Shown: positions 3,724 through 25,154 of the stretch, piece by piece
How positions within the stretch are numbered: the first letter of the stretch is position 1
How the letters are laid out: each line of letters starts with the position of its first letter
Assembly (NCBI GenBank): GCA_023150835.1
Contig: JAKLKB010000028.1
Location: 1-58,164 of the forward strand
DNA from: Myxococcota bacterium
Lineage (GTDB): Bacteria; Myxococcota_C; UBA6777
Direction of reading: 5' to 3'
DNA: 58,164 nt
Made by a program: the position numbers and the translations under genes
Notes under the pieces: model-generated
Seen by the model: the letters and a program-made list of their open reading frames with translations, nothing else
Told to the model about the DNA's origin: nothing
The model's database searches: none

Positions 3724-3750
3724 TTGGAGTTCCTTTCTGGTGGGAGTGGC

Positions 3751-3886
3751 GCAGTAGCCAAAAAAGCCGTGTTCGCGAACGCTCAAGCGAGAGCGTCGCT
3801 GGTTTGAAAAACAGTGATCTCATCGCCCACACGGGGTCAAGGGGGCAAAGCTAAGGGTGTGGGGCGTGGGGTGAAGCCCCACCACC
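3751..3886 (-). repeat. Dispersed intergenic repeat family B (about 135 bp), copy 1
   Basis: Reverse complement matches the copies at 19785, 24448, 49757 and 56529 (GTGGGG..CCCCAC / CCCCTTGACCCCGT / TTTTTCAAAC / CGCTTGA / GCGAACACGG). Confidence 0.85.
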
Positions 3887-3889
3887 CCC

Positions 3890-4009
3890 TACGATATCCG
3901 AGAGGAGTGCGATCGCAATGGTCGGTGCGAGCCGCTGTAATTGCCCTGTTATAGGGCAGCCACAGGGGGCTGCCCCTACGTTTTACGGTCACGCGCCCTG
4001 CGGATCTCG
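3890..4009 (-). mobile_element. MITE-like element family A with internal REP hairpin
   Basis: Starts TACGATATCCG, ends CGGATCTCG; contains GGGCAGCCACAGGGGGCTGCCCCTAC. Confidence 0.6.
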
Positions 4010-4318
4010 GCTGGGTCCGACTGCGTAAGTCCTATGTCATACGAGACATCCGAGATCTTGCGGGCAAGGATACACTTGTGCGCAACGACGGAGAACGAAA
4101 GGAGATGTCGCGATGTGGGGAGGGCGGTCGCCTCGAAAGGAATGGCGGTTGGATGGGGAGGAGAGCAGCGTCTTGACGTGGTGTGGAGGGGTGGGTAGAA
4201 CAGGCGGGCCGATGGGCAGATCTGCTGTTTTTCAGCCTCGCGTTGAGAGCGTTGTGCTGGGAGGATGGCGGATGGACGGTGATCTTTGGCAAAGCCCTTA
4301 CAACAAGCGAGGAAAAGG

Positions 4319-8985: not shown

Positions 8986-11900
8986 ATGAAGAGAAAGTAT
9001 CGATGGGGCCGAGTTGGTTTGGGGCTGTTGGGCGTTTGGGCGTTGGGGCTGTTGTTGACAGCAGCGGATTGGCCAAATGGCCCCGATGAAGATCCGACGT
9101 TGGCGATCCCCAACGATCCCGATTATGCGCGGCGTTGTCGTTGTAAAGCAGGCGCAACCTGCCCAGACGAAGATCCCGACACCAAAGAAAACAAAGACAA
9201 ACCTTGTTTTCATGATCGCCAATGCGGGGGCAAAAGCTTTGTCTGCCAAGGCCGGGGATATTGGAATTATTGGAGCTTTGTTCCTGAGGAGTGGACAAAA
9301 ACCCCGGGGTTTCGAGAAGAAGAAAAACAGCTTGGGACAGGGATACACGCCGATCGCGCATGGCAACTGACCACAGGTGATGCGCGTGTGCTGATCGCCG
9401 TCACCGATTCGGGCGTGTATTGGGACAACAAAGACCTCGTGAACAAATACTACCTCAACACAGGCGAACTGCCCAAACCCCAAGACAAAGACGGAAAAGA
9501 ATATCCCACCCACGACGCCAACGGAGACGGCGTGGTGAATATGTTGGATTACGCCGACGATCCCCGAGTGACCGACAAAAACGGCAACGGGATCAAAGAC
9601 CCGGGCGATCTGATCAAGACCTTCTCGAACGGAAAAGATGACGATAACAACGGATACATCGACGACATCAGCGGTTGGGACTTTATGCAAGACGACAACG
9701 ATCCCAACGACGACACCCGCTTTGGACACGGCAACGGAGAAGCCAGCGACTCCGCAGCCGAAGGGAACAACGGGATCAGTGGCGTGGGAGTCTGCCCAAA
9801 GTGCATGGTGATGATGTTGCGGGTCTCGGACAGCTTTGTGGGTGATACCAACCACTTTGCGGCAGCGTCGATTTATGCGGCAGATATGGGGGCGCAGGTG
9901 ATCCAAGATGCCCTTGGCGTGATGAACAACACGCCTTATTCGCGAGAAGCGGTGGCGTATGCTTGGCGCAAAGGCACGCTGGTGATCGGAAGTTCGGCAG
10001 ATGAGACGAGCTATCACCACAATTATCCCGGGATCTACTTGCATACGTTGTACGTGAGCGCGATCCGCTATGATGCAGAAAAAGTCGAACAATCCAAGAC
10101 CTTTTTGAATTTTACGAACTGCTCGAACTTTGGCGGGAAGTTGGTGATCTCGACCCCGGGAGTAAGCTGTTCCTCCGAAGCGACGGGGATTAGCAGCGGC
10201 CATGCAGGATTGTTGTACGCGGCAGGACTCAAGTTCAAGGTGACACCGCCCTTGAATGCGGCAGAAACCTATCAGCTTTTCATTATGAGCGCGGATGATA
10301 TCAACGTCGCGGAGTCCAAGACAGACAAGACCAAGTATCCATCAGGTCCGGGATGGGATCATTACTTTGGTTATGGTCGCAACAATGCGCGACGCTCGGT
10401 AGAATGGGTGCGCGATGGCGCGATCCCACCAACGGCCCTGATCACAAGCCCACGTTGGTTTCAACCGATCTATCCAGCCAAAACACCCAGTATAGCGATC
10501 GAAGCCGAGATCGAAGCCCGCCGCCACGAGCGATTTGACTACATCTTGGAGGTCGCAAAAGGCGTCCAGCCCGAAGAAGGCGCGTATCGCAAGCTCAAAG
10601 AAGAAAAAAGTGTCACGCAAGCGATCAAAGGCAAAGTCGCAGACTGGTCTGTCAAAGACGAAGACTACGAAAAGACGGGAGCCACCACACGCGACGCCCA
10701 CAAACACAGCTACACGATCCGCATCCGTGTGACGGCATACCGCAAAGACGGAAAGACGGACAAAGGAGAGTTTCGCAAGACCGTTCATCTGCTCGATGAT
10801 CCCGATCTTGTGGCGGCATTTCCGATGTATCTCGACGCTGGAGGCGCCCCCTCGCTCAAGATGGCGGACCTGAACAACGACGGAAAACAAGAACTGATCG
10901 TCGCAAGTGAAAGCGGAACCATCCACGCCTTTGATATCAACGGAAAAGATATCGAAGGCTGGCCCGTCCAAACCAAGCTGTTGGCCTTTTTTGATCCAAA
11001 CAACCCCAACAACCACCTCAAAGCCCCTGCCTACGACAAAGAAGGGTTCCGCAAAGACTACCGCCAATCGATCATCGCCACCCCCGCGATCGGCGATCTC
11101 GATGGCGACGGAAAGCTCGAAGTGGTCGTCGCAAGTTACGACGGCGAAGTCTATGTTTTCGGGCATGACGGAAAGCCCAAAGCAGGGTTTCCCGTCAAAC
11201 TCGATGCTGAAAAGTCGAAGAAGACGGACAAAAACAACCGACTGGAGTACGGGATCTTTGCTTCGCCTGTGTTGTTTGATCTGGATGGAGACGGAAAGCT
11301 GGAGATCATCGTGGGGGCGATGGATGGACATATTTATGTGTGGCGGCACGATGGCTCGATGCAACCGGGCTTTCCAGTCGAGCTAAGCGACAAAAGCGAA
11401 GCGACTCCTCAGCGCGGGCGGATCATGTCGACGCCCGCAGTCGGAGATGTCGATGGGGACGGGAAACCCGAGATATTTGTCGGAACCAACGAGGTCTACA
11501 AAGATGAAAAAGAAGCCCGATTGTACGGCATCCACCATGACGGCAACAACCACGCAGGTGGCCCCTACCTTGCGGGATGGCCTGTCAAGATCTTTACCTT
11601 GGCAGGTGATGTGTTGCCGTATGTGGGGCGTGGAAACCCCAACTCACCGATGCTTGCGGACTTTGATGGAGACGGAAAGCTAGAGATCGTCAACGGCACG
11701 ATGTTCTTTTCTCCAACGATCTACAAGGCGGATGGAACGCAGTTTCGACAGATGCTTCCTGCGCCTTTTGGTGCGGGGACGGATTCAACGGACACACAGA
11801 TGATCTTTGGTCTCAACAACCCATCCCTCGGGGATCTCGACGGCGACGGTATCCCCGATCTGATCGGCGGTGGTGTGGGCGGAAACGCCTTGAAGGCGAT

Positions 11901-12519
11901 CGCAGGGCCGGGAGGAGTGCGCGCAGACGCCGAGCATCTGTTGGGAGCGTGGAGTGGGAAAACAGGTCGGATGTTGGCGGGTTTTCCGCGTGTGGTCGAA
12001 GACTTTCAATTTTTTATGAACCCCGTGGTTGCAGAGATATCAGGGGACGACAAATACGACGTGATCTCGGGGACGGGAGGCTATCTCTTGCACGCGGTGG
12101 GATCGGATGGAAAGCCCGTTGCAGGCTATCCCAAACAAACAGGCGGCTGGCTGGCGGCTTCACCGACAAGCGGCGATATGGACGGAGACGGAAAGCGCGA
12201 GCTTGCGGCGCTCACACGCAACGGCTGGTTGTTTGTGTGGCGCACCAAAGGCGATGCAGGGATCAAAGCGCAATGGGAATCCTTTCACCACGATCTCGCC
12301 AACACAGGCAACTTTAGCGTGCCCTTGCCGGGTCGTCGCATTGGAGATGCCCCCGAAAAAGTAGACGAACCCAACCCTTCAGATGGCGGAAACACCGACA
12401 AGACCGGTCCCGCCACAGGATGCGGATGTCAAAGCAGCGGTGAAAGCGGATTCTCGGTCGGTTTGCTGTTGATCTTGTTGTGCTGGTTGGCACGCCGCCG
12501 AGTTGTGGGGGTTGGATGA
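8986..12519 (+). CDS. S8 family serine peptidase with FG-GAP/VCBS repeats and MYXO-CTERM-like anchor
   Basis: Asp in AVTDSG, His in FGHGN, candidate Ser in SCSSEATG; DDDNNGYIDDISGWDF; many GDLDGDGKLE repeats; C-terminal GCGC + hydrophobic stretch + RRR. Confidence 0.88.
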   Translation: MKRKYRWGRVGLGLLGVWALGLLLTAADWPNGPDEDPTLAIPNDPDYARRCRCKAGATCPDEDPDTKENKDKPCFHDRQCGGKSFVCQGRGYWNYWSFVPEEWTKTPGFREEEKQLGTGIHADRAWQLTTGDARVLIAVTDSGVYWDNKDLVNKYYLNTGELPKPQDKDGKEYPTHDANGDGVVNMLDYADDPRVTDKNGNGIKDPGDLIKTFSNGKDDDNNGYIDDISGWDFMQDDNDPNDDTRFGHGNGEASDSAAEGNNGISGVGVCPKCMVMMLRVSDSFVGDTNHFAAASIYAADMGAQVIQDALGVMNNTPYSREAVAYAWRKGTLVIGSSADETSYHHNYPGIYLHTLYVSAIRYDAEKVEQSKTFLNFTNCSNFGGKLVISTPGVSCSSEATGISSGHAGLLYAAGLKFKVTPPLNAAETYQLFIMSADDINVAESKTDKTKYPSGPGWDHYFGYGRNNARRSVEWVRDGAIPPTALITSPRWFQPIYPAKTPSIAIEAEIEARRHERFDYILEVAKGVQPEEGAYRKLKEEKSVTQAIKGKVADWSVKDEDYEKTGATTRDAHKHSYTIRIRVTAYRKDGKTDKGEFRKTVHLLDDPDLVAAFPMYLDAGGAPSLKMADLNNDGKQELIVASESGTIHAFDINGKDIEGWPVQTKLLAFFDPNNPNNHLKAPAYDKEGFRKDYRQSIIATPAIGDLDGDGKLEVVVASYDGEVYVFGHDGKPKAGFPVKLDAEKSKKTDKNNRLEYGIFASPVLFDLDGDGKLEIIVGAMDGHIYVWRHDGSMQPGFPVELSDKSEATPQRGRIMSTPAVGDVDGDGKPEIFVGTNEVYKDEKEARLYGIHHDGNNHAGGPYLAGWPVKIFTLAGDVLPYVGRGNPNSPMLADFDGDGKLEIVNGTMFFSPTIYKADGTQFRQMLPAPFGAGTDSTDTQMIFGLNNPSLGDLDGDGIPDLIGGGVGGNALKAIAGPGGVRADAEHLLGAWSGKTGRMLAGFPRVVEDFQFFMNPVVAEISGDDKYDVISGTGGYLLHAVGSDGKPVAGYPKQTGGWLAASPTSGDMDGDGKRELAALTRNGWLFVWRTKGDAGIKAQWESFHHDLANTGNFSVPLPGRRIGDAPEKVDEPNPSDGGNTDKTGPATGCGCQSSGESGFSVGLLLILLCWLARRRVVGVG

Positions 12520-15380
12520 TCGAACAACTGTCGGCTCCTTTTGTGGTGTTTGCGCTAGAGGAACGAGCGTTGGTGGCGCATCAGGCGATCCAAACCTTCT
12601 CGGCTTACGGTCGTGCGCGAGCGGTAGGAGAAGCCTTTTCTTTGCGTGCCTACTGGTGCGAACAAAAGCGATGGCTATCGCCTTCGTTGTACGATGCTTT
12701 GTGGGAGCGCTTCTCAACGGAAACCTCGGCAGAACAGCAGGAAGAAGTCTTGGACGCGGAGACCCAACGCAGCCGCGATCTCGACTGCTTGGCGACCGTA
12801 CAGCTTTACATACTCCAACACCCGACAGACTCACAAGAAACACCACAACGCATCCAAATCGAGCGCGGAAAAAAGCAAGAAAAGCAACAGAAAGCGATGC
12901 TTCAGATCGCAAAAGAAGCCGACCACCGCGCAAAGGAGAGCGACAGCAGCGCAAAGGAGGAAGTCCCCAAAACACAGGTGCTTTCGGTGTCCGTCACCGA
13001 AGCAAGCGAGGATATCCCCGCCCAAGCGCATCTTGTCGAAGCGCCGCAAGTGCTTTGGCAACCCGCCCGCGTCTACGCCGAACGCTACAAAGAAGAAGAA
13101 GAGTTGGGACGCGGTGGTCTTGGGCGGGTGGTGGCGCTGTACGACCGCAATGTCGGTCGAAAAGTAGCAAGCAAGATGCTGTTGAAAGGCACAGGCGCAT
13201 CGTTTCGAGAGCATCAGCGCTTTTTTGAAGAGGCCCGACTGACGGGGCAATTAGAACATCCCAACATTATCCCGATCTACGATATCGGCGTGTTGGAAGA
13301 TGGGCAGCCCTATTACACCATGCGCCTGAGTTCATCGCGAAATCTTGCGCAAGTGTTAGAGGAACGCAGCGCCTCGATCTTGCAACTGCTCAAGATCCTT
13401 CAACAGATGTGCATGGGCCTTGAGTACGCGCACAGTCGAAATGTGATCCACCGCGATATCAAGCCCGCCAATATCTTGCTTGGTGAGTTTGGCGAGGTCT
13501 TGATCTTGGATTGGGGGATCGCGGAACGCACAGCCCCCGAAGACCAAGCCGACGGATTCAGCACACAAACCCCCAAAGACAAGATCCCTCGCGGAACTCC
13601 CGCTTACATCGCCCCCGAAGTCCTCACCAAGGGCATCATCTCACCTGCTTTGGACCAATACGCCTTGGGGGTGATCTTGTACGAGATATTGACGGGGAAA
13701 CGGCCTTTTGAAGAAGTCAACCTGTTTACGTTGATCTTCAAAGTCAGCTTTGAAGAACCCTATCCACCGAGCCATTGCGATGTGTCTTGGGAAGTCCCCG
13801 AAGAGCTAGAACAGATCTGCTTGCGGATGTTGGCCAAAGATCCCCAAGCGCGTTTCCCGTCTTGCCGCGCTGTCTATGATCAGTTGGAAGAATATCTGGA
13901 AGGCACAAAAGAAAAACAACGGCGAAAAGAAGCCGCCCTTTCTCGGATCGCAGAAGCCGACGCGATCAAAGTAGAGTTCTACGAAAAACGCGCACAGTTG
14001 GGCGCATTGCGAAAAGAATGGGAAGATGCCCAAAAGACCGTCGAACCGTGGGACAGCCCCGAAGCCAAGCGCGAAGCATGGGCCAAAGAAGACAAGTTCC
14101 TCGAATTCGAGCAAGAAGTGGTGCGGCTTTTTGGGGCAGCGGTCCAAAAGTACATCCGCGCACTAGAACACGAACCCGGGAACGCAGACGCCAAAAACGG
14201 CCTTGTCGAGTTGTATTGGGAGCGCTTCTTGGAGGCCGAACGCGAAGGCGACACCTTGCAACAGATCTATTACCGCGATCTGGTGGAGTTTTATGACGAC
14301 GGAACCTACGCAAGATTGCTGCACGGCCAAGGCATCGTTGAGATCGCCACAGACCCCAAAGACGCCACCCTACAGGTCTTTCGCTTTGTGGAGCAAGAGC
14401 GCAGACTCCGACCGCTTTTAGAGATCGAAGAAAAAAAAACACCCAGCACACTCGAACTTTCGCAAGGCTCGTACCTCTTGCGCTTCCATAAGCAGGGGCG
14501 GCGAGACACGCTTTACCCGCTACAGATCCAACGAACCACCCGCGATGCTGTGCATATCCGCTTGTACCGCGAAGAAGAGATCGGTGGGGCATACATACAC
14601 GTCCCTGCGGGGCCATTTCCGTTTGGTGGCGATCCAGAAGCCTTGATGGGGCTGCCTTTTTCGCACCACACACTCGATGACTTTTTTATCTCGCGCTATC
14701 CTGTCACGTTGGGGGAATACCTGATCTATGTAAACACCATCCATGCCGAAGATCCCGCCCGTGCAGCAGATCTGGTTCCGCGATCTGGACAAGAAAACTA
14801 CGCGATATTGGAGGGGGATCACTACATCCCCCATCGTGCGGCCCTATTAGAAGGTGAGATCGCCCAACGCTATCCCGTAGGCGAAGGGCATGAAGAGCGT
14901 CTACCTGTGTTTGGAGTGAGTTGGTTTGAAGCGGTCTTGTACTGTCGCTGGCGCACCCAACGCGAAGGGCGCTTGGTGTCCTTGCCCTCCGAAGAACAAT
15001 GGGAAAAAGCCGCAGGGTGCTTTGATCAGCGGATCTATCCTTGGGGCAATCGTTTTGATGCAACCTTTTGTAAGATGGGGCGCTCTCGCCCTGCCAACCA
15101 GCTACAGCCCGAGCCGATCGGCGTCTTTACGGCGGATCAGTCCGTGTATGGGATGTGTGATGTGGTGGGATGTGTTAGCGAATGGACGCTCTCGATGACG
15201 CCCGAAGAAGTGGCGTTGTTCACCGAAGATCCAAAGATCACCCCCGTTCAACGAGGCGGTGGATGGGTCGCTTCTAACGAGCGAAGTTTGCGCCTTCGCA
15301 CACGACTGCCCCGCGCCGAAGGCACACGGACGTACAATTGCGGCTTTCGCGTTGTTGCTTATCCCAAACAGCCAAGCTAG
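12516..15380 (+). CDS. Ser/Thr protein kinase with PEGA-like region and C-terminal FGE-sulfatase (SUMF1) domain
   Basis: LGRGGLGRV, VASK, HRDIKPAN, DWG, GTPAYIAPE; C-terminal LPSEEQWEKAA..RIYPWG, QRGGGW, GFR; ATG overlaps the S8 stop (ATGA). Confidence 0.9.
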   Translation: MIEQLSAPFVVFALEERALVAHQAIQTFSAYGRARAVGEAFSLRAYWCEQKRWLSPSLYDALWERFSTETSAEQQEEVLDAETQRSRDLDCLATVQLYILQHPTDSQETPQRIQIERGKKQEKQQKAMLQIAKEADHRAKESDSSAKEEVPKTQVLSVSVTEASEDIPAQAHLVEAPQVLWQPARVYAERYKEEEELGRGGLGRVVALYDRNVGRKVASKMLLKGTGASFREHQRFFEEARLTGQLEHPNIIPIYDIGVLEDGQPYYTMRLSSSRNLAQVLEERSASILQLLKILQQMCMGLEYAHSRNVIHRDIKPANILLGEFGEVLILDWGIAERTAPEDQADGFSTQTPKDKIPRGTPAYIAPEVLTKGIISPALDQYALGVILYEILTGKRPFEEVNLFTLIFKVSFEEPYPPSHCDVSWEVPEELEQICLRMLAKDPQARFPSCRAVYDQLEEYLEGTKEKQRRKEAALSRIAEADAIKVEFYEKRAQLGALRKEWEDAQKTVEPWDSPEAKREAWAKEDKFLEFEQEVVRLFGAAVQKYIRALEHEPGNADAKNGLVELYWERFLEAEREGDTLQQIYYRDLVEFYDDGTYARLLHGQGIVEIATDPKDATLQVFRFVEQERRLRPLLEIEEKKTPSTLELSQGSYLLRFHKQGRRDTLYPLQIQRTTRDAVHIRLYREEEIGGAYIHVPAGPFPFGGDPEALMGLPFSHHTLDDFFISRYPVTLGEYLIYVNTIHAEDPARAADLVPRSGQENYAILEGDHYIPHRAALLEGEIAQRYPVGEGHEERLPVFGVSWFEAVLYCRWRTQREGRLVSLPSEEQWEKAAGCFDQRIYPWGNRFDATFCKMGRSRPANQLQPEPIGVFTADQSVYGMCDVVGCVSEWTLSMTPEEVALFTEDPKITPVQRGGGWVASNERSLRLRTRLPRAEGTRTYNCGFRVVAYPKQPS

Positions 15381-15606: not shown

Positions 15607-17691
15607 ATGCCAAGGCAAGAACGGAAGATCGGTGTGTTGTTTGTGGGATGGGCGTTGGCTTGGCTCGGGCTGTGGGGCTGTAGTTCATCGCCCGGAAACA
15701 CAAAACCAGTGGGCCAATTGCCTCCTGATACGGTGGTGTTCAAGACCGAAACAGCACTGTGTCCCGATCGGTTGCTGTCGAGTTCGCCCGTCCAATTCGA
15801 CGGAGAGGCATGTGATATCAACAAAAGCGAGCCTTGCAACAGCGGCTGCCGTCCTGCGGTGACCTTGGCCTCAAGCAAGATCGAAGGGGACGTGGATGCG
15901 TTGTGTGGGCAATCGGGTGTGTTGTGCGTTGGAAAAGGCCGAGGTCTCGAAGAGATCAAAGAACTGCCCAAACGTTTGCAAGACGACGCAACGATCGTGC
16001 GGGTGATCTTGATGGGGGAGGTCTGGCAAGGGCCGATCGAGTTGGGCGGATTGACGCGCACGATCACGATCGAAGGAGTCTCGAACGAAGCCAACGCAGG
16101 TGCGCGCATCCAACTGCCCGAACAAGCCGATGCCCCCGAAGATTACGCAGCCCTCCAGATCGAAAGTAACGCAGATATCACCTTGAAGCGCCTGCATATC
16201 AGCGGAGGTGGGCATGGCGTGTTGATCCGCGCCGCCCGCATCGCCACGCTCGAAGAGGTGATCCTTAAGGGAAATCGGCTGTCTGGCTTGCACGTCGAAT
16301 CTGCCGAGGAAGTCAAGATCCTCCAAACACAAGCCACACAAAATGGCAAGCCGTTGTTGCGCGAGGGTTCGACAGAACCCGTCTCACGGCTGCGTTTTGG
16401 CGTGATGTTGGGCAAAGTCAAAGTCGTCTCGGTCGCCAACACGGAGATCGCCCACAACGGAGCAGGGGGACTGGCGCGGGCGTGGGAAACCAAAGCGGTG
16501 GGGATCACGCATGATCACCGTGTGACGGGGCGTTATGAAAAATATGGTGTCGGCATCACCCACGATCACAAGGTCGCCATGCGCTCGACCTACGTCCACC
16601 ACAATGGCCCGATCGCAGCCGATACACGGCGCAGTCAAGAAGATTGCTCCACGCGTTGTCCAAGAGGTACCTTTTGCGAGGCTGGGATCTGCCGTCCTTC
16701 CTTGGTGGAAGATGGGCAAGAACCCACCCAAGGACAGCGTTTGTTGGGGGTCGGCGTCCATATCGCAGGCGCAGGCATCGTGGAGATCGAAGGCAACAGC
16801 TTTTTTGGCAACGATACCGCTGGTGTGATCGTGCATTCAAGCGCAACGGTCAGCTTGTCGCGAAACGCATTCGAGCGAAACGGCGTTCGTTCGGCCCAAA
16901 TCAACGCTGAGATCGCGGAGCGGTTTGCTTATCCAGCCGCGCACCTCTGGCACGTCCAAAAAGATATCCGCGCAGAAAGCAACGTATTTACCGACAACTA
17001 CGGCGACGGCTTGCGTGTCGGCCATGAGCGCGTCGAAGGCCAAAACGTGGGCAACCTCAAGACCAACCTGTTCTCGAACGCCTTTTGGGGCCAAGGCCGC
17101 AGCCGTCCCAAAGGCGAGTTTCCCGCAGGAACAGGACTCCGTATCGCCCATGCAACCGACGGGGTGGACGCCGAAGTTCGCGTAGAAAAGAACTACTTTC
17201 ATGGCAACGGAGCCGCAGGGCTGGGCGTTTCAGGCAAAGGCTCGTTCAACGTCGCAGAAAATAAGTTTGAAAAAGAGCGATTGCGCGCCATTGCTTTCCA
17301 CGATGTCAAGAGCGCCAACACCGCGATCACCCGCAACAACCTCTCGGATATCCGAGGCTTTGGGATCCAGCTCGTCGATATCTCAGGCGAGTTCAGGCTG
17401 TCCGAGCTGTGGATCAACAAGATCACCCGCATCAGCGAAGAAAGCGAAGGCGACGGCATCAACATCAGCCGCCTTTCGGAAGGCCGCGTCTCGATCCAAA
17501 CCACAAGCTTCCAAGAGGCCGGACGGGCAGGCATTTTCTTGGATGCTGCTCGTGCGGAGCTTTCTGGCAACAGCTTCACCGCGATTGAAAAGCCCATCCT
17601 CCTTCAAGGCGACGCTTCTGTCACAGGCGAAGCAACCAAAGGCGATCGAGTTCGTTCCCCCCTTCCCAACCGCAAGATCGCCCTCCCCTAA
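15607..17691 (+). CDS. Right-handed parallel beta-helix repeat lipoprotein
   Basis: Lipobox LWGC; repeated N-x-x-x-G-l-x-v coils (GNRLSGLHV, HNGAGGL, GNDTAGVIV, DNYGDGLRV); start may be 15577. Confidence 0.8.
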   Translation: MPRQERKIGVLFVGWALAWLGLWGCSSSPGNTKPVGQLPPDTVVFKTETALCPDRLLSSSPVQFDGEACDINKSEPCNSGCRPAVTLASSKIEGDVDALCGQSGVLCVGKGRGLEEIKELPKRLQDDATIVRVILMGEVWQGPIELGGLTRTITIEGVSNEANAGARIQLPEQADAPEDYAALQIESNADITLKRLHISGGGHGVLIRAARIATLEEVILKGNRLSGLHVESAEEVKILQTQATQNGKPLLREGSTEPVSRLRFGVMLGKVKVVSVANTEIAHNGAGGLARAWETKAVGITHDHRVTGRYEKYGVGITHDHKVAMRSTYVHHNGPIAADTRRSQEDCSTRCPRGTFCEAGICRPSLVEDGQEPTQGQRLLGVGVHIAGAGIVEIEGNSFFGNDTAGVIVHSSATVSLSRNAFERNGVRSAQINAEIAERFAYPAAHLWHVQKDIRAESNVFTDNYGDGLRVGHERVEGQNVGNLKTNLFSNAFWGQGRSRPKGEFPAGTGLRIAHATDGVDAEVRVEKNYFHGNGAAGLGVSGKGSFNVAENKFEKERLRAIAFHDVKSANTAITRNNLSDIRGFGIQLVDISGEFRLSELWINKITRISEESEGDGINISRLSEGRVSIQTTSFQEAGRAGIFLDAARAELSGNSFTAIEKPILLQGDASVTGEATKGDRVRSPLPNRKIALP

Positions 17692-17741
17692 ACGGCCTTC
17701 CCTACGCTACGCCTTCCCCCAAAGACGCAACTCTCCCAGAA

Positions 17742-17854
17742 TACGAGAGCCGCCCGTTGTATGCTCGTAAAAATGTAGGGGCAGACAGGTGTGGCTGCCC
17801 AAGCACAGGGCGTCTACGCGCTATCCTGCGATCACACATCACTCGGATATTGTA
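17742..17854 (+). mobile_element. MITE-like element family A (113 bp)
   Basis: TACGAGAGCCG...CGGATATTGTA with internal GTAGGGGCAG..GTGGCTGCCC; lies between convergent genes. Confidence 0.65.
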
Positions 17855-17872
17855 TAAGACGCAACACCTCTC

Positions 17873-18739
17873 TCAAAACGAAGAAGCAGAGGCCGCATCC
17901 CCTGCAAGATAAAAGCACGTGATGGTGTAACGTGCGATCCCCTCGGGGATAGCGCGCACAGGCTCCACCCAATGAGGTGCGCCCTGAGGACGAAAGATCA
18001 AAGCGCTGTTGAAGACAGGCGGGATCGCCAAAGCGATCCGTTGCTTGTCAGGATGCAAGAAATACAGGTTCCCCCCCCATTCAGGCGACCAATGCGCCGA
18101 AAGATTGTACACCACAGCGATGCCTTCGCATTCGGTGTCTTCGTGCATCGCGAAAAAATCCCCCTCCCGCAAACGTGATATCTGGACTTGAATGGCCGAG
18201 TGCATTGGACGAGGATGAGGCCATCCCACCAGCCATTGATGCGCTGCTGCCGCCTCTTTGGTGCGCAACCAATTCACCAGCCCCGCCAAGATGCCCGACG
18301 GCGCAAGCGCGTCCATCGGAAGGATATCGATCTGGTAATCCGAAAAATGATGCCGAACAAAAGACGCTGTAGACAGTTCTTTCCAGATCGCCCACGCCTG
18401 TTCGGCAGGGAAAGCCTCTTGCAAAGCAACGTGCGGGATCGGCCCTTCAAAAAGAAAATGTTGGCGGATCGTCGTCACGATCGCGGGATCGAGAATCTGA
18501 GGATGCCACCACTGCGACACATTCGAGGGGTCGGGCGAAGAGTCATGTACGATCGTTCGCCAGTTCGAGCCAAAGCGGTGATCTACAAGATGAGGAATAA
18601 AAAAGGCCCCTCGTTCGGACGCTTTGGGAAGGCTCTCCCACGCAGGCCAAGCGTGCTCCAAAAACAAAGAACGGCTGTGCTGTTGGTATCGCTCGATCGG
18701 GGGTTGGCATCCTTCGTTCGGGGATTCTGGTCGACTCAC
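17873..18739 (-). CDS. 2OG-Fe(II) oxygenase (prolyl-hydroxylase-like), putative RiPP tailoring enzyme
   Basis: HxD (MHED), WxxEWGGxL, distal His (APHWV), 2OG-binding Arg (ARYTI); GGAG before GTG 18739; 29 nt after the ATP-grasp stop. Confidence 0.85.
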   Translation of the reverse strand: MSRPESPNEGCQPPIERYQQHSRSLFLEHAWPAWESLPKASERGAFFIPHLVDHRFGSNWRTIVHDSSPDPSNVSQWWHPQILDPAIVTTIRQHFLFEGPIPHVALQEAFPAEQAWAIWKELSTASFVRHHFSDYQIDILPMDALAPSGILAGLVNWLRTKEAAAAHQWLVGWPHPRPMHSAIQVQISRLREGDFFAMHEDTECEGIAVVYNLSAHWSPEWGGNLYFLHPDKQRIALAIPPVFNSALIFRPQGAPHWVEPVRAIPEGIARYTITCFYLAGDAASASSF

Positions 18740-18768
18740 GCTGGCCCTCCATTCGCTTGTTGATTTGC

Positions 18769-19710
18769 TCAGATAGCCGCTTGTTCGACCAAGAACGCCG
18801 CCAAACGCTTGATCAAGACCCCTTCCACGGGATCGTCGAAGTACGATATCGCAGGCGTTGGATTGCACTCAAACACCACAAAACGCCCATCTGCTTGGCG
18901 TCGCATATCGACCGCCGTCCAAGACAGCCCAAGCACCGACGCAGCGCGCACACACAACGCCCATGCTTCTTCTGAGATCACCGTAGGTCGGGCTTGATCG
19001 ACCGCCTCACGTGCATCCACCAACCCCTCCGTTGGCAACGAAAAGGCCGCCACAGGCTCGCCGTTCAACACATACGCTCGGAACTCTTCGCCTAGAATCT
19101 CCTCCTGAAACAGCACAGGGCAATGCGCCAATAACCCCAACCGTTCGGGCTGGAGATCGGCGCTCGACAAACGTCGCACCATCGCACCTCCCCCAAGCGG
19201 CTTGTAGATCACACGTGGATGTCGCTCAACAAACGCCAATAACGCCGAATGATCGGACGTTGCAAGGCTTTCAGGAACAGGGATGCCCTGCGCTTTCAAG
19301 CGCGCAAGCTGATGCAGCTTGAGTTCATGCAAACGCACCGAAGCCATCGGATTGATCATCCGCGTCCCTTGCTCTTCCAAGATCTCCAACACCGACGCAA
19401 TCAACGATTGACGTTCCCGCTCTGCGATGTACATCTCCTGCCAGATATCAAAGTTGCGCCGCGAAAATTGCTCGGGGTCGGTCGAAGGCACACCCGTGTG
19501 GATCGTCCGCAGATACACACAACGCAACGCATCCAAACGCTCCCCCTCATAAAGCAACGCTCCTCGATCGTACGTCAACGTTCGCGCTTCTGGAACAGCC
19601 GCCGTTTCCAACAGCCAAGGCAAACCACCCGCCCGCTCCACCGCCTTCATCACATACATCGCTTGCTCGTCTTGTCGGGATGCAACAATTCCGACACACT
19701 TCTTCTCCAC
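18769..19710 (-). CDS. ATP-grasp ligase, RimK-like / graspetide synthetase (MvdC/D, PsnB)-like
   Basis: INP...KLHQL..GIPVPESLATSD; IYKPLGGGA; PVLFQEEI; VDAR at the DxR position; AVDMRR..DGRFVVFECNP; N-terminal S..DE.A.YV like peptide-maturase ATP-grasps. Confidence 0.85.
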   Translation of the reverse strand: MEKKCVGIVASRQDEQAMYVMKAVERAGGLPWLLETAAVPEARTLTYDRGALLYEGERLDALRCVYLRTIHTGVPSTDPEQFSRRNFDIWQEMYIAERERQSLIASVLEILEEQGTRMINPMASVRLHELKLHQLARLKAQGIPVPESLATSDHSALLAFVERHPRVIYKPLGGGAMVRRLSSADLQPERLGLLAHCPVLFQEEILGEEFRAYVLNGEPVAAFSLPTEGLVDAREAVDQARPTVISEEAWALCVRAASVLGLSWTAVDMRRQADGRFVVFECNPTPAISYFDDPVEGVLIKRLAAFLVEQAAI

Positions 19711-19784
19711 GATCTGGGTTCCTCACAGTGCTTGTTTTGTTGATAGGACCTACGCATTTGGATGGTTTGGTGTTTATTGATTCA

Positions 19785-19911
19785 GTTTTGTGGGGCGAGG
19801 TACCACACCCCGCAAGGGTGCACAGCCCCTTTGACCCCGTTTTGGCGAAGAGATCACAGATTTTTCAACACAACGGCTCTGTCGCTTGAGAGAGCGCGAT
19901 CACGGAGTTGG
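19785..19911 (+). repeat. Dispersed intergenic repeat family B, copy 2
   Basis: TTTTGTGGGG..CCCCGCAAGGG..CCCCTTTGACCCCGT..TTTTTCAAC..CGCTTGA..CACGG; sits between the precursor and ATP-grasp genes. Confidence 0.8.
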
Positions 19912-19957
19912 AGACAGTGTAGCTTGCAAGACAGCGGAACAACCAGAAAGAAGGGGC

Positions 19958-20782
19958 TTAGCGGAAGAGATCGCGGAGTAGGTTCGCAAGATCGGAGAGT
20001 TGGCTTCCAAGCGAGCCGGGAAGAGGCTCATCCGCACGAAACTTCATAATCGGTCCGCCATTTTGGGGAAACCCGATGTCGGGAAGGCTGGGGAATCCGC
20101 CGCCTTGGTTCGGCATCGGCTCATCCGCACGAAACTTCATGATCGGTCCGTTGCCACCGGGAAACGGGAACGTCGGGACTTGGGGCAAGCCCTCTTGACC
20201 GGGCATCGGCTCATCCGCACGAAACTTCATGATCGGTCCGTTGCCACCGGGAAATGGGAACGTCGGAGGTTTCGGTGAAGAGCCATCTTGACCGGGCAAC
20301 GGAACGTCTGCACGAAACTTCATGATCGGCCCGTTGCCACCGGGAAATGGAAACGTCGGAGTTTGAGTTGGAGGTGTGGGTTGTCCGCCGTCTTGGCCGG
20401 GTAGTGGGACATCTGCGCGCACTTTCATGATCGGCCCGTTTCCGCCCGGCAGTTGAGGATGTCCGCCGTCTTGGCCGGGCAGTGGGATATCTGCGCGCAC
20501 TTTCATGATCGGCCCATTGCCGCTCGGCAAATGGGGTTGCCCTCCCTCTTGGCCGGGTAATGGGACATCCGCACGAATCTTCATGATCGGCGGTTTGCCT
20601 TGCTGTTGGGATTGAACGAAGTTTTTGACCGCGTCAGCAGCCCCTTGAAAGCCTTTTGCAGCGCGTTCAAAAGCATCCGCAACTCGGCCCCCTCCGTCTT
20701 TCACACCTTGGTTTTGTTGCGTAGAAGAGGTTTTTTCGGTGGATTGGACGGGAGGTAGGTTCGGCTTTTGATTGATCTTCAT
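19958..20782 (-). CDS. Repeat-containing putative RiPP (graspetide) precursor, 274 aa, seven PIMKxRADxP(L/M)P cores
   Basis: AAGGAG RBS; about 60-aa non-repetitive N-terminus; cores at residues 65, 91, 117, 152, 183, 213, 244 separated by Gly/Pro linkers; synonymous variation between repeats supports coding; upstream of the ATP-grasp gene. Confidence 0.8.
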   Translation of the reverse strand: MKINQKPNLPPVQSTEKTSSTQQNQGVKDGGGRVADAFERAAKGFQGAADAVKNFVQSQQQGKPPIMKIRADVPLPGQEGGQPHLPSGNGPIMKVRADIPLPGQDGGHPQLPGGNGPIMKVRADVPLPGQDGGQPTPPTQTPTFPFPGGNGPIMKFRADVPLPGQDGSSPKPPTFPFPGGNGPIMKFRADEPMPGQEGLPQVPTFPFPGGNGPIMKFRADEPMPNQGGGFPSLPDIGFPQNGGPIMKFRADEPLPGSLGSQLSDLANLLRDLFR

Positions 20783-20808
20783 CTTGTGCTCCTTAGCGAT
20801 AACGCTAT

Positions 20809-20838
20809 GCATCGTATGGAGATATCTCCATGCGATGC
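20809..20838. promoter_or_regulatory. 30-bp near-perfect dyad upstream of the precursor gene (possible operator or hairpin)
   Basis: GCATCGTATGGAGAT|ATCTCCATGCGATGC, one mismatch. Confidence 0.45.
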
Positions 20839-20868
20839 TTGGTTTTGTTGAACGGGCATCAACCAAAG

Positions 20869-20895
20869 GTATCGTCAAGAGCGAGGCAAAGTTGC
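20869..20895 (-). promoter_or_regulatory. Possible sigma28 (FliA)-like promoter of the precursor gene
   Basis: GCAACTTT-N11-GACGATAC versus E. coli consensus TAAAGTTT-N11-GCCGATAA (5/8 and 6/8 matches). Confidence 0.3.
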
Positions 20896-20908
20896 GTGCG
20901 AGTGCGGC

Positions 20909-23047
20909 TCAGACCTTCTCAAAGAACCGTTCGCTCGCTGCAGCCATCTTTTTCAAGATCGCGGGGGCAGCGTAGCGCGTACCGTAGCGCTCGGCGAATG
21001 CCGTCAGCGTTGCAACAGCGTTGTTTAGCCCGATGCGATCGAGGTAAGAGAACGGCCCTCCTGTGTTCGGTGCAAACCCCACACCGAAGATCGCCCCAAG
21101 ATCGGCATCGCGATGATTGCGCAAAACGCCCGACTCAAGGGCCTTGAGCGCTTCCACGCACTGAATCAACAACAAGCGCTGTTGCACCAAGGTCTCGCTG
21201 CTTTCAGCAGGCATTTGTGCAACCAGCGACTTCAAGCCATCCCAAAAGCCCTTGCGCCGGCCATCTTCGTAGTTGTAAAAGCCCGCCCCTGCGGCTTTTC
21301 CGTTGCGTTTGTGGATATCCACAAGCTGCTTGAGAAGCTCCACTCCCGCAAGCTTCAGTTCGGTTCCAAGGTACTTTTCGCCTTGCTCGATGCCGTGTCG
21401 TCCGAGGCTCAGGCTGACTTCATCAAAGACTTGCAGCGGTCCCACGACCATTCCTGCGCTACGGGCCGCCCATTCGATCAAGGCGGGAGGATGGCCTTCG
21501 GCGAGCAACTGCACACCTTCGAGCGCGTACGCGGAGAACACGCGGGTGGTATAAAAGCCGTAGCCATCGTTGACAACGATCGGAAGTTTTTTGATGGCTT
21601 TACAGTAGTGAAGGCAGCGCGCCAAGGTATCTTGGGAGGTTTCGGCTCCCATGATGATCTCCAACAGGGGCATCTTTTCAACGGGAGAGAAGAAGTGCAT
21701 CCCGATAAATCGGTCTTTTTGTTTGGAGACGATCGCGAGATCGTTCATCGGCAACGCAGAAGTATTGGAGGCCCAGATGCCGTTTGCAGCGAGCAATCCT
21801 TCGAGTTCTTGGTTGACTTGGTGCTTGATCTCAAGCTTTTCAAAGACGGCCTCGATGATCAAGTCGCATCCTTCGAGATCTGCGGACGCAAGCGTCGGTT
21901 TGATGCGTGACGCAAGCTGCTTTTTCCCCGCTTCATCGAGTTCTCGGCGCTTGCTGACTTCCCCAAGACAATGCTCCATCCCGCGATCCAAGGCTTCTTG
22001 ACGGATATCTTTGAGGACGACTTCGTAGCCGCGCAACGCGCTCGTAAACGCCAGTCCTGCGCCCATCATCCCCGCCCCCAAGATGCCGATCTTGCGGATG
22101 CCGCCCTCTTCGACCGAGGGCAGACCGTCGTGCTTTTCAGCAGCAGTGCGATGATACCAGATGGTGCGCAGCATGTCCTTGGCCTGATCGCTTGTGACCA
22201 TCCCCGCGAAGTAGCGCGATTCAACCACCAAACCTGCATCAAAAGTCAACTGCGTCCCTTCTTGGACCGCAGAGAGCGCAGCTTCGGGGCCTTTGAAAGC
22301 CCCTGCTGTCTTCTTAAATAGCATCGCGCTGGCCGCCATCAAGAGATTGCGCGCATCCCCTGTAGCGGGCTGAGGCCCGGGAAACGCAAACCCCTCTCGA
22401 TCCCAAGGCTGTTTGGCCCTCGGATGTGCGGCGATCCATGCTTCGGCCTTGGTGCGAGCAGCTTGGGCATCGACAGCGAGATCGTCGATCAGTCCGGCAT
22501 CTTTGGCTTGTGCTGGCCGATACAGCTTTCCTTGCAAGATCGCTTCGAGCGCTGCTTGCAATCCGATCAAGCGCGGCAAACGCTGCGTCCCGCCCATCCC
22601 GGGCAACAGCCCCAACGACACTTCGGGCAAGCCGATCTGGATCTTGGGATCATCGACAGCGATCCGTGCATGGGCCGCCAATGCAAACTCGTACCCCCCG
22701 CCCAACGCCGACCCCGCCAACAAACAAACCACAGGGTATTTCAGCGTCTCCAAGCGCCGCAGCAAGCCGTGTAGCTGCATCACCCCCTCACGAGCCGCCG
22801 CTGCATCGCGCTGTTTGTACATCACGTCGATGTCACCACCCACACAAAAGTTTTTGTGCGCGCTGTCCAGAATCAGACCCTTCAAGCCCGTCAGCGACGA
22901 AAGCCAATCCAGCCCCATCGCAAGGCCCACACCAAACGCCTCGTTGATCTTGTTCGCTCCATCGGGCATCGCAAAGGTCAACGTCGCGATGCCTGTGTTT
23001 GGATCGAAATGCTGCAAAAATGCCGGATTCTTCTGTATCTGTGTCAT
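20909..23047 (-). CDS. fadB: Fatty acid oxidation multifunctional enzyme (enoyl-CoA hydratase / 3-hydroxyacyl-CoA dehydrogenase)
   Basis: ALGGGYE, IGLPEVSLGLLPGMGGTQRLPRL, GILGAGMMGAG, IIEAVFE, ASNTSAL, GMHFFSPV. Confidence 0.92.
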   Translation of the reverse strand: MTQIQKNPAFLQHFDPNTGIATLTFAMPDGANKINEAFGVGLAMGLDWLSSLTGLKGLILDSAHKNFCVGGDIDVMYKQRDAAAAREGVMQLHGLLRRLETLKYPVVCLLAGSALGGGYEFALAAHARIAVDDPKIQIGLPEVSLGLLPGMGGTQRLPRLIGLQAALEAILQGKLYRPAQAKDAGLIDDLAVDAQAARTKAEAWIAAHPRAKQPWDREGFAFPGPQPATGDARNLLMAASAMLFKKTAGAFKGPEAALSAVQEGTQLTFDAGLVVESRYFAGMVTSDQAKDMLRTIWYHRTAAEKHDGLPSVEEGGIRKIGILGAGMMGAGLAFTSALRGYEVVLKDIRQEALDRGMEHCLGEVSKRRELDEAGKKQLASRIKPTLASADLEGCDLIIEAVFEKLEIKHQVNQELEGLLAANGIWASNTSALPMNDLAIVSKQKDRFIGMHFFSPVEKMPLLEIIMGAETSQDTLARCLHYCKAIKKLPIVVNDGYGFYTTRVFSAYALEGVQLLAEGHPPALIEWAARSAGMVVGPLQVFDEVSLSLGRHGIEQGEKYLGTELKLAGVELLKQLVDIHKRNGKAAGAGFYNYEDGRRKGFWDGLKSLVAQMPAESSETLVQQRLLLIQCVEALKALESGVLRNHRDADLGAIFGVGFAPNTGGPFSYLDRIGLNNAVATLTAFAERYGTRYAAPAILKKMAAASERFFEKV

Positions 23048-23057
23048 CTGTTCTTCC

Positions 23058-24263
23058 TCACACGCGCTCAATAATCGTTGCGATGCCCATCCCACCCGCA
23101 ATGCAGGCAGTCACAAGTCCCGTCGTCTGGTCCCGATCTTCCAAGGCATCCAACACCGTCCCCAACAACATCGCTCCTGTCGCACCCAACGGATGCCCCA
23201 ACGCGATCGCACCTCCATGCGGATTGACGATCTCAGGCGAGACACCAAACGCCTGCATAAAGGCCAAAGGAACGGCTGCAAAGGCTTCATTGACTTCGAT
23301 CAGATCGATATCTCGGATATCCATCCCCGCTTTTTTGAGCGCCTTGCGCGTCGCTGGGATCGGCCCATCCAACATCAAGATCGGCTCATCCCCCACCACC
23401 GCCGCAGCGCGAATGCGTGCGCGAGGTTTGAGTCCCAACGCGGCTCCTTTTTCTTTGCTCGCCAACAACACGGCTGCTGCGCCATCCACGATGCCCGACG
23501 AATTGCCTGCTGTATGGATATGCTCGATCCGCTCGATATGCGGGTAAGCTCGCTTGGTGATGGTGTCCAAACCAAACTGTTCACCCATCATCTGAAACGC
23601 GGGTCGCAAGGCCGACAGCCCTTCAAACGTCGCATCGGGCCGAGGGAACTCATCACGCGCCAAGACGACTTCACCGTTTTGATCGCGCACCGCCACAATA
23701 CCGCGTTGAAAACAGCCCTTTTCGATCGCTTCGACCGCACGCTTTTGACTGCGAAACGCAAACTGATCCACCTCTTCACGCGAAAATCCCCGCAACGTCG
23801 CCAGCAGATCCGCCGCCACTCCCTGCGGAACCGTCCCCACGCGCCATTGGTTGGTCGCGTCCCACATCGCCCCACCATCCGAACCCATCGGAACACGAGA
23901 CATACTTTCCACACCACCCGCGATCATCAGATCCACAAATCCCGCTGCGATCTGCCCCACCGCATAATGCACCGCCTCCAAACCCGAGCCACAAAAGCGA
24001 TTCAACGTCACTCCCGCAGCCACCTGATCAAAACCCGCCTCCAACGCCGCTGCTCGGGCAATACAACTTCCTTGCTCTCCTGTCTGCGTCACACAACCCA
24101 TCACCACATCTTCCACTTCCCGAGTGTCCAACCCCTGACGCGCTTGCAACGCCTTCAACACCGTCACCACCAGATCCACAGGACGCACCGTATAAAGAGC
24201 CCCGTTGTTTTTGCCCTTCCCTCTAGGCGTTCGCACCACATCGTAAATGTACGCTTCTCCCAT
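23058..24263 (-). CDS. fadA: Acetyl-CoA C-acyltransferase (thiolase)
   Basis: NRFCGSG, AGGVESMS, EVNEAFA, GGAIALGHPLGATG, CIAGGMG; operon with fadB. Confidence 0.93.
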   Translation of the reverse strand: MGEAYIYDVVRTPRGKGKNNGALYTVRPVDLVVTVLKALQARQGLDTREVEDVVMGCVTQTGEQGSCIARAAALEAGFDQVAAGVTLNRFCGSGLEAVHYAVGQIAAGFVDLMIAGGVESMSRVPMGSDGGAMWDATNQWRVGTVPQGVAADLLATLRGFSREEVDQFAFRSQKRAVEAIEKGCFQRGIVAVRDQNGEVVLARDEFPRPDATFEGLSALRPAFQMMGEQFGLDTITKRAYPHIERIEHIHTAGNSSGIVDGAAAVLLASKEKGAALGLKPRARIRAAAVVGDEPILMLDGPIPATRKALKKAGMDIRDIDLIEVNEAFAAVPLAFMQAFGVSPEIVNPHGGAIALGHPLGATGAMLLGTVLDALEDRDQTTGLVTACIAGGMGIATIIERV

Positions 24264-24447
24264 GCTCACACTCCTCTTCGTTCACACACAACACCCACAC
24301 GCTCCAAAGCAAGCAGGCCCCAAATCAAACAAGATGCCCGCCCTCGCATCTTACAACGCGAGGTCATGGCTCTCCTGCGCGTGACATCTTGCACGCTTCA
24401 CCGTTTCTCAACAAGTCTGGTGTCTGGTTTTTTTCTTGTTATATGGT

Positions 24448-24575
24448 GTTGTGGGGCGCTGCCCCAGACCCCGCAAGGGACCAAAGGCCCCTTGACCCCG
24501 TGTTGGCGGCGTGAGCAGGTGTTTTTCAAACAAACGACGGCTCCGCTTGACAGGGCGCGAACACGGGAGTTTGGG
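24448..24575 (+). repeat. Dispersed intergenic repeat family B, copy 3
   Basis: GTTGTGGGGCGCTGCCCCAGACCCCGCAAGGG..CCCCTTGACCCCGT..TTTTTCAAAC..CGCTTGA..GCGAACACGG. Confidence 0.85.
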
Positions 24576-24676
24576 TGAGGGGGGTCTCGTGTTGTGAGAT
24601 GGCGGCTTGGGGCGGCAGGATCTCTCGATCGCAAATGGCGGATTGATGAGCAGGATTCATCCGCGCAGAAAACGGG

Positions 24677-24705
24677 TTGGCAGAACGCGCTGTCTGTGGT
24701 AGGGT
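24677..24705 (+). promoter_or_regulatory. Putative sigma70 promoter upstream of FKBP
   Basis: TTGGCA-N17-TAGGGT with extended -10 TG. Confidence 0.4.
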
Positions 24706-24821
24706 GCGCCGCGTTGTGAGGCGGTGGCTCGACGCCGGGTGGCGTCTTCTATCCTGACGGGAGTTCCGTCCTCATCGACACCTCACAAACCCTCACACCC
24801 ACAAAACAAGGATCACAGATC

Positions 24822-25154
24822 ATGGCAAACCTTCAAATCGAAGAGCTTCAAATCGGCACAGGCGAAGAAGCCAAAGCAGGCATGAGCGTAAGCGTCCATT
24901 ATACGGGCTGGTTGACCAACGGAACCAAGTTCGATTCCTCACTTGACCGAAACAGCGCCTTTTCCTTTGAGCTGGGTGCAAGCCAAGTGATCAAAGGCTG
25001 GGACCAAGGCGTCGCAGGCATGAAAGTAGGCGGAAAACGCAAACTCACCATCCCACCCGAACTCGGCTACGGCGCACGCGGTGCAGGTGGTGTCATCCCC
25101 GGCAACGCTACCTTGATCTTTGAAGTCGAGTTGCTTGGCGTCAAAAAGCGCTAG
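24822..25154 (+). CDS. FKBP-type peptidyl-prolyl cis-trans isomerase
   Basis: [55 protein letters not shown]. Confidence 0.97.

Follow-up and report, generated by a model that had tools for sequence, protein, structure and literature searches.

Graspetide group 15 is represented by the corallotide cluster of Corallococcus exercitus (Carter et al., ACS Chem Biol 2026, PMC13097080), for which the report describes a large precursor with repeated KxxxD motifs (CorA), an ATP-grasp ligase (CorB, TIGR04187), a PF13640 oxygenase (CorC) and a protein of the beta-lactamase fold (CorD, PF00144). Dehydration in that system maps to KIVAD, exchange of either Lys or Asp for Ala (K-to-A, D-to-A) abolishes modification, trypsin no longer cleaves at the cross-linked Lys, and nuclear magnetic resonance (NMR) of the peptide NPDDGVIVKIVADDPLR located an isopeptide between Lys9 and Asp13 together with a hydroxyl at C5 of the Lys (5-hydroxylysine). 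CorC acts only after CorB; CorB depends on CorC to be fully active, and the two co-purify. The N-terminal domain of CorA binds CorB, CorC and CorD, the last of which is non-essential and is listed for all group 15 clusters. What is reported as the product is the modified protein at its full length, in which no bioactivity was found, and the core of which gives collagen-like circular dichroism (CD) spectra and aggregates. The architecture is stated in the same report to be restricted to the genus Corallococcus. Here, we describe a candidate cluster of this type in a different host, a Myxococcota bacterium, on contig JAKLKB010000028.1 of assembly GCA_023150835.1 (58,164 nucleotides (nt), the whole of which is referred to below as the window), with emphasis on a repeat-rich precursor gene at 19958..20782 and the two enzyme genes that follow it.

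The three genes lie on the minus strand in the order precursor, ligase and oxygenase, each of them as an intact open reading frame (ORF). The first encodes a CorA-like precursor of 274 amino acids, made up of a leader, seven KxxxDxP repeats and a C-terminal helix. Its longest minus-strand ORF extends over 19958-20878, and the ATG at 20782 is the likely start; the sequence AAGGAG is found six bases 5' of this codon, and the independent database protein P0065 begins at the same Met. No match to the precursor was found in Pfam or NCBIfam. The repeat array (20015..20593, minus strand), as seen in the translation and in tandem-repeat and general repeat searches, contains seven copies of the core P-I-M-K-[I/V/F]-R-A-D-[V/I/E]-P with Pro/Gly-rich linkers between them, the repeat region as a whole being 20% Pro and 17% Gly. 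At the DNA level, Tandem Repeats Finder reported one array with a period of 93 (2.7 copies, 90% matches, score 388) and a second with a period of 78 (2.8 copies, 81% matches, score 295), and a separate repeat search returned families of 6 and 4 copies. The heptads from Lys to Pro occupy 20561-20581, 20483-20503, 20405-20425, 20300-20320, 20207-20227, 20117-20137 and 20024-20044, with the Lys, the Asp at +4 and the Pro at +6 kept in 7/7 repeats, a pattern far beyond chance. If the chemistry follows that of corallotide, the predicted Lys(i)-Asp(i+4) isopeptide sites would be K68-D72, K94-D98, K120-D124, K155-D159, K186-D190, K216-D220 and K247-D251. An initial annotation of this DNA had described repeats with an invariant Lys and Asp, free of Ser and Thr in the cores, and this was confirmed for all seven ten-residue cores, every heptad of which falls inside 20015-20593. 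It had also drawn attention to additional, variable acidic residues, and we likewise find PGQ[D/E] after the core in 5/7 units and RADE in the last three.

The next gene (18769..19710, minus strand) encodes an ATP-grasp ligase of 313 amino acids, which we consider a CorB-like graspetide synthetase based on its NCBIfam match, its closest solved chain and its identity to a ligase of C. exercitus. Related loci are referred to here by L numbers; L011 and L020, both from C. exercitus, encode the exact published peptide, with 4 and 7 motifs, respectively, when counted by pattern, vs five modified motifs in PMC13097080. The window ligase is 52% identical to that of L011 over residues 3-311, and among solved chains the nearest is 7drm (PsnB), matched at E 5.2e-42 along residues 7-292. 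Arg211 of the ligase, which is invariant, pairs with an Arg of 7drm; if the 7drm chain carries a 20-residue tag, this Arg may be the acid-recognizing Arg213 described for PsnB. Among 8000 scored candidates, 64 relatives of the ligase were obtained at E <=0.001, originating from Archangium, Corallococcus sicarius, Myxococcus stipitatus, M. virescens and uncultured Myxococcota or Deltaproteobacteria. The host genome itself has one copy of this kind of ligase, plus one distant ATP-grasp match at E 2e-6.

The third gene (17873..18739, minus strand) encodes a CorC-like 2-oxoglutarate (2OG)-Fe(II) oxygenase (PF13640, E 3.4e-12). Its longest ORF spans 17873-18868, the likely start being a GTG at 18739 that is preceded by GGAGG, and homology to its relatives begins at residue 79 of that longest ORF. 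The protein is 38% identical to the L011 oxygenase over 246 amino acids, and H164, D166, H221 and R235 (H-x-D...H...R) are invariant in 11/11 aligned sequences, so that the iron- and 2OG-binding residues, as read from the alignment, are intact. One locus, L026, was left out of this alignment as its matched stretch holds an in-frame stop. A prediction of the ligase-oxygenase complex scored 0.01 vs a mark of 0.32 and weighs neither way. The initial annotation had overlooked this gene, whose counterpart CorC installs a hydroxyl at C5 of the cross-linked Lys and serves as an activator of CorB (PMC13097080).

Taken together, we estimate at roughly 0.8 the probability that these repeats belong to a CorA-like precursor within a three-gene, corallotide-type cluster, in which Lys-Asp lactams would be formed directly and then hydroxylated. 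Ring formation, hydroxylation and the site at which it occurs, the step order, the partnership of the two enzymes and the full-length product would all be carried over from corallotide by analogy. In each K-x-x-x-D-x-P core, the ligase would phosphorylate the Asp on its side-chain carboxylate. The Lys that precedes this Asp by four residues would then attack through its epsilon-amine, so that each protein would acquire seven small side-chain-to-side-chain isopeptide (lactam) rings without any ester step. The oxygenase would hydroxylate the cross-linked Lys (C5 in corallotide), and is probably also an activating partner of the ligase, and the modified Pro/Gly-rich repeat protein as a whole, rather than a set of excised peptides, is the probable product. 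The proposal of the initial annotation that one ligase may make Lys-Asp amides directly is thus backed by homology, namely by corallotide, the 52% identity of the ligases, the shared gene order and the existence of relatives poor in Ser and Thr. It had called this chemistry unusual, which was fair as judged at the time, but there is now precedent, in the corallotide report (March 2026) and, for KxxE motifs, in PMC12848669. Blocked cleavage at the Lys, K-to-A and D-to-A variants and NMR have all been reported for the corallotide homologue (PMC13097080). The suggestion of a small product library has no support: no protease, exporter or transporter conserved with the cluster was found across the related loci, and the product described in PMC13097080 is the full-length protein.

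We compared the window with 27 related loci, obtained from a ligase scan of one genome per species and with ligase identities of 38-94%. A same-strand ORF with 2-11 copies of K-[IVLFM]-x-x-D-x-P lies 5-73 nt upstream of the ligase gene in 26/27 loci, the sole exception being L001, where just 170 upstream bases exist, and an oxygenase homologue follows the ligase in every one (27/27). Precursor, ligase and oxygenase are the only gene families common to all clades of these loci. The 27 precursors (window plus 26 loci) contain 165 K-[V/I/F]-x-x-D-x-P heptads, with Val, Ile or Phe at +1 in 163 of them. When a looser pattern was used that fixes neither the Lys nor the Asp, these residues stood at those positions in 143/148 hits, and the 5 exceptions were Pro-rich linker strings. 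As described for graspetides in general, a PsnB-homologous ATP-grasp enzyme is encoded beside a precursor in which a Lys and an Asp are conserved, here across 27 precursors.

This conservation bears on whether the repeat protein is a substrate at all. The ligase could instead be of the RimK/glutathione-synthetase type and act on another target, with an incidental neighbor in the repeat gene, or the cluster could be decayed or silent. All NCBIfam matches of the ligase are far under their cut-offs, including the top one to TIGR04187 'ATP-grasp ribosomal peptide maturase' (E 8.4e-21, 74.5 bits, cut-off 350); RimK-family models match as well (E 2.2e-16), the Pfam ATP-grasp matches are sub-threshold, and a dispersed repeat interrupts the operon. 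The characterized C. exercitus ligase, however, is similarly far under the same cut-off, TIGR04187 being its top model too at 91.4 bits, and the synteny with precursor and oxygenase persists across the whole range of ligase identities. The three window ORFs are intact with the metal ligands of the oxygenase kept, and RNA-library contigs from three studies (X15/X16, both of one sample; X17; X19) contain near-identical precursor sequence, with fragments of the two enzyme genes likewise present in X15/X16; such contigs show presence in the libraries, and prove neither transcription, strand nor level. We therefore regard a repeat protein that is not the substrate as very unlikely.

A second alternative retains the precursor as substrate of the corallotide-type enzymes and changes the bond, such that Asp or Glu would form esters (lactones) with Ser/Thr of the linkers, or with a hydroxyl that the oxygenase has placed on Pro, Lys or Asp. 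Most characterized graspetide ligases, including PsnB, make esters, a hydroxylase is present at every locus, and in 6/7 window units the linker or tail includes one or more Ser/Thr. The remaining unit of the window, PIMKVRADIPLPGQDGGHPQLPGGNG, is without any Ser/Thr, and several family members are almost devoid of them in their repeat regions: L024 has 0 Ser and 1 Thr in 155 residues with 8 repeats, L019 has 1 Ser and 0 Thr (7 repeats) and L026 has 3 Ser and 0 Thr (7 repeats), which rules out ester formation as the conserved chemistry. In the corallotide system, omission of CorB left the peptide unmodified, which implies that the oxygenase acts only after cyclization, and omission of CorC still gave the dehydrated product (PMC13097080). 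Ester cross-links thus appear to us extremely improbable, and direct Lys-Asp lactams remain the preferred chemistry.

Several observations weigh against a straightforward transfer from corallotide. The leader resembles Corallococcus leaders weakly, with blastp giving E 0.002 to that of L006 only and no match to L011, L002, L005 or L016. Both enzymes have diverged from the characterized ones (52% identity for the ligase, 38% for the oxygenase), and the window sits together with L001 on its own long branch of the ligase tree (length 0.83). A tblastn search with the CorD-like protein of L011 finds no match in the window. The gap between precursor and ligase measures 247 nt and holds a dispersed repeat, vs 5-73 nt in the 26 related loci, so co-transcription of the two genes is not assured. 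Finally, sequence alone cannot pair which Lys with which Asp, and the amides might thus run between repeats or between precursor molecules, producing a cross-linked polymer or network. The Pro/Gly-rich linkers and the predicted disorder of the repeats would fit such a network, as would the collagen-like CD spectra and the aggregation of the corallotide core. On the other hand, nuclear Overhauser effect spectroscopy (NOESY) contacts and tandem mass spectra put the corallotide bond inside one KIVAD of a single tryptic fragment, and a truncation with a single repeat, CorA1-112, is fully modified (PMC13097080). The strict i to i+4 spacing seen in 143/148 of the loose-pattern motifs is also what a ring within the motif would constrain. 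We consider bonds between repeats or molecules unlikely, and a ring within each K-x-x-x-D-x-P core the better account of the conserved spacing.

The leader, or N-terminal domain (amino acids 1-64, 20591..20782, minus strand), was characterized by an AlphaFold2 model and by sequence comparison. The single-sequence model has a mean predicted local distance difference test (pLDDT) score of 49.7, with a leader helix at residues 30-60 (block pLDDT 76-81), a second helix at the C-terminal end (amino acids 256-272, 19967..20017, block pLDDT ~85) and repeats at ~41, predicted to be disordered; of this model, made without an alignment, the two helices alone are usable and the repeat region is uninformative. 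In a MAFFT alignment with Corallococcus-type leaders, the N-terminal MxxI..P and a DAFE motif align. Corallococcus-type precursors stop right after the last KxxxDxP and have no C-terminal helix, while the tail that carries it in the window is also present in P0065. The latter is a precursor allele of 183 amino acids, encoded on another contig, with the same leader (one substitution), the same tail and four repeats. One RNA-library contig omits exactly 90 nt of the precursor gene, equal to one unit (20111 to 20202). Both the four-repeat allele and the 90-nt skip may represent genuine variation in copy number or a collapse of repeats during assembly. P0065 was the only precursor relative matched in the protein collection, by a word-based search that evidently misses diverged repeat proteins which synteny recovers.

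Among the related loci, the nearest is L001, a Myxococcota metagenome-assembled genome (MAG) whose ligase is 94% identical to that of the window. Of the 6 genomes searched from the host's phylum-level group, 2 have the ligase, and one same-genus genome without it is 64% complete. Corallococcus supplies >10 species to the 27-locus scan, compared with the 6 genomes of the host group, from which we infer that the host belongs to a different phylum-level group than Corallococcus. A CorD-like gene adjoins 11/27 loci, all of them in the Corallococcus clade of the ligase tree, and in the host genome distant CorD relatives are found on other contigs only (E 1.5e-19 and 2.4e-7). The precursors in the clade of L019 and L022-L026 start ~10 residues before the first K-x-x-x-D-x-P and have practically no leader; they are of the type M-R-I-R-P-P-K-P-P-I-V-K-V-R-A-D-L-P with very Lys/Pro-rich linkers, and end just before position 5001 of their loci. 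In L026 (Archangium MAG), the oxygenase-like stretch with an in-frame stop lies at 5920-6600; pseudogenization, a frameshift or faulty assembly may account for it. In L027 (Myxococcales MAG), a 577-codon ORF upstream of the ligase (3214-4944) has only two K-I-R-A-D-D-P motifs near its end, which may point to a substrate of much greater size or to read-through of the ORF.

The repeat in the gap between precursor and ligase is a dispersed intergenic element of ~120 nt (19785..19905), with a second, direct copy at 24446-24566 (74% identical). A first look at the host genome gave 468 candidates, and 40/40 of those scored were significant (78-87% identity), on many contigs and in both orientations. 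It looks like an intergenic element of the repetitive extragenic palindromic (REP) or miniature inverted-repeat transposable element (MITE) type, and an Rfam search of 17500-25000 at E <=0.1, which includes this repeat, gave no match. A second dispersed repeat of ~85 nt at 17745-17830, with a GGGCAG...CTGCCC hairpin, is situated in the convergent gap past the oxygenase gene; it has 688 first-look candidates in the host genome, with 79-95% identity among the 50 matches listed and some copies in tandem. The dispersal of this family accounts for the very high summed depth of RNA-library contigs at 17745-17830, and the bins at 17924-18054 that are uncovered in all four RNA runs carry no meaning. 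A scan of 17500-21200 for promoters and terminators found one promoter-like and five terminator-like sites vs shuffle means of 1.1 and 4.4, i.e. not above chance; folding of the 250-nt precursor-ligase gap gave a z-score of -0.02 and hence no special structure, and no tRNA was detected in 17000-21500.

Three large plus-strand genes beside the cluster are not conserved with it in other loci. The one at 15577-17691 matches right-handed beta-helix and NosD-like Pfam domains, and the other two, judged from their translations alone, look like a subtilisin-like secreted protein with repeats (8986-12519) and a fusion of a Ser/Thr kinase with a sulfatase-modifying-factor-like domain (12480-15380). A link with fatty acids, via the upstream fadB-like and thiolase genes, was rejected, as these genes do not accompany the cluster in other loci.

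The locus adds to a kind of system that is already known, and is of value for its scope. Lactam-only cross-linking is already published, and what is new here is modest: a host that is not Corallococcus, the absence of CorD, a divergent leader, a C-terminal helix and an inserted dispersed repeat. The three-gene core is present in at least 4 other named or unnamed lineages, mostly without the beta-lactamase-fold gene, so that its scope is wider than PMC13097080 states. We found no description of members of this three-gene family outside Corallococcus in the literature searched, and the survey by Makarova et al. 2022 (PMC8939145) mentions neither Myxococc* nor 2OG, dioxygenase or hydroxylase. Such natural variants in leader and partner genes bear on what the ligase and oxygenase recognize, on how general the oxygenase partnership is, and on the biological role of collagen-like stapled proteins. 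Tentatively, the observations may be read jointly, a reading that we hold to be possible rather than probable: precursor, ligase and oxygenase would constitute an old, self-sufficient module distributed well beyond Corallococcus (in Archangium, Myxococcus, uncultured Myxococcota and the host lineage) and working without CorD. With the almost leaderless precursors of L019 and L022-L026, recognition by the enzyme pair of that clade would have to rest on the K-x-x-x-D-x-P repeat. The product would be a stapled, hydroxylated Pro/Gly-rich protein with a structural or aggregating role and a repeat number that varies between strains (7, 6 or 4 seen), and not a diffusible peptide.

Compared with other graspetides, the window is like the microviridins (MdnB/MdnC, MvdC/MvdD) in having an ATP-grasp enzyme and a core Lys four residues before an Asp, a similarity that the initial annotation had expressed as an alignment of motifs. 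The alignment proved superficial. The microviridin core TxKxPSDx(D/E)(D/E) has Thr and Ser as ester donors, of which there are none in the seven window cores, and microviridins use a ligase pair of the MvdC/MvdD type, whereas the host genome has a single ligase of this kind. In microviridins it is a downstream Glu, rather than the Asp at +4, to which the Lys is bonded, and the alignment therefore has no mechanistic meaning. The window ligase reaches 34.5 bits with the MvdC model (cut-off 425) and 30 bits with the MvdD model (cut-off 475), and the cores are without Thr/Ser; membership in the microviridins (group 1) was rejected.

PsnB (7drm; 10.1101/2021.03.09.434688) similarly modifies a precursor with several repeated cores, but it forms Thr-Glu esters on TTxxxxEE, with no Lys nucleophile and no oxygenase partner. 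Gra-4 (PMC9576775), likened here by description, has short repeated cores (TxxKxxDD) in which Lys is used for macrolactams, as in the window, and differs in its Thr donors, its four dehydrations per two repeats, its other spacing and the lack of any mention of an oxygenase. The myxomiditide ligases MyxF/MyxD1 (PMC12848669), also likened by description, are ATP-grasp enzymes that likewise form Lys-to-acid lactams on repeated short motifs with no prior ester. Unlike the window, these motifs are (KxxE)n with bonds from i to i+3, a microviridin-type core with lactones is also present, and four ligases cooperate with no oxygenase. Relative to corallotide itself, the window has seven cores of the R-A-D type, Pro/Gly-rich linkers of the form PLPGQ[DE]G...PTFPFPGGNG, a weakly similar leader, an extra C-terminal helix, a 247-nt gap with a dispersed repeat, and a host that is not Corallococcus and belongs to a phylum-level group with 6 genomes. 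In both systems, the precursor is large and combines an N-terminal domain with repeated K-x-x-x-D(-x-P) cores, the ligase gene comes directly after that of the precursor and a PF13640 oxygenase gene directly after the ligase, and the chemistry predicted for the window by analogy is likewise a Lys(i)-Asp(i+4) isopeptide followed by hydroxylation at C5 of the Lys.

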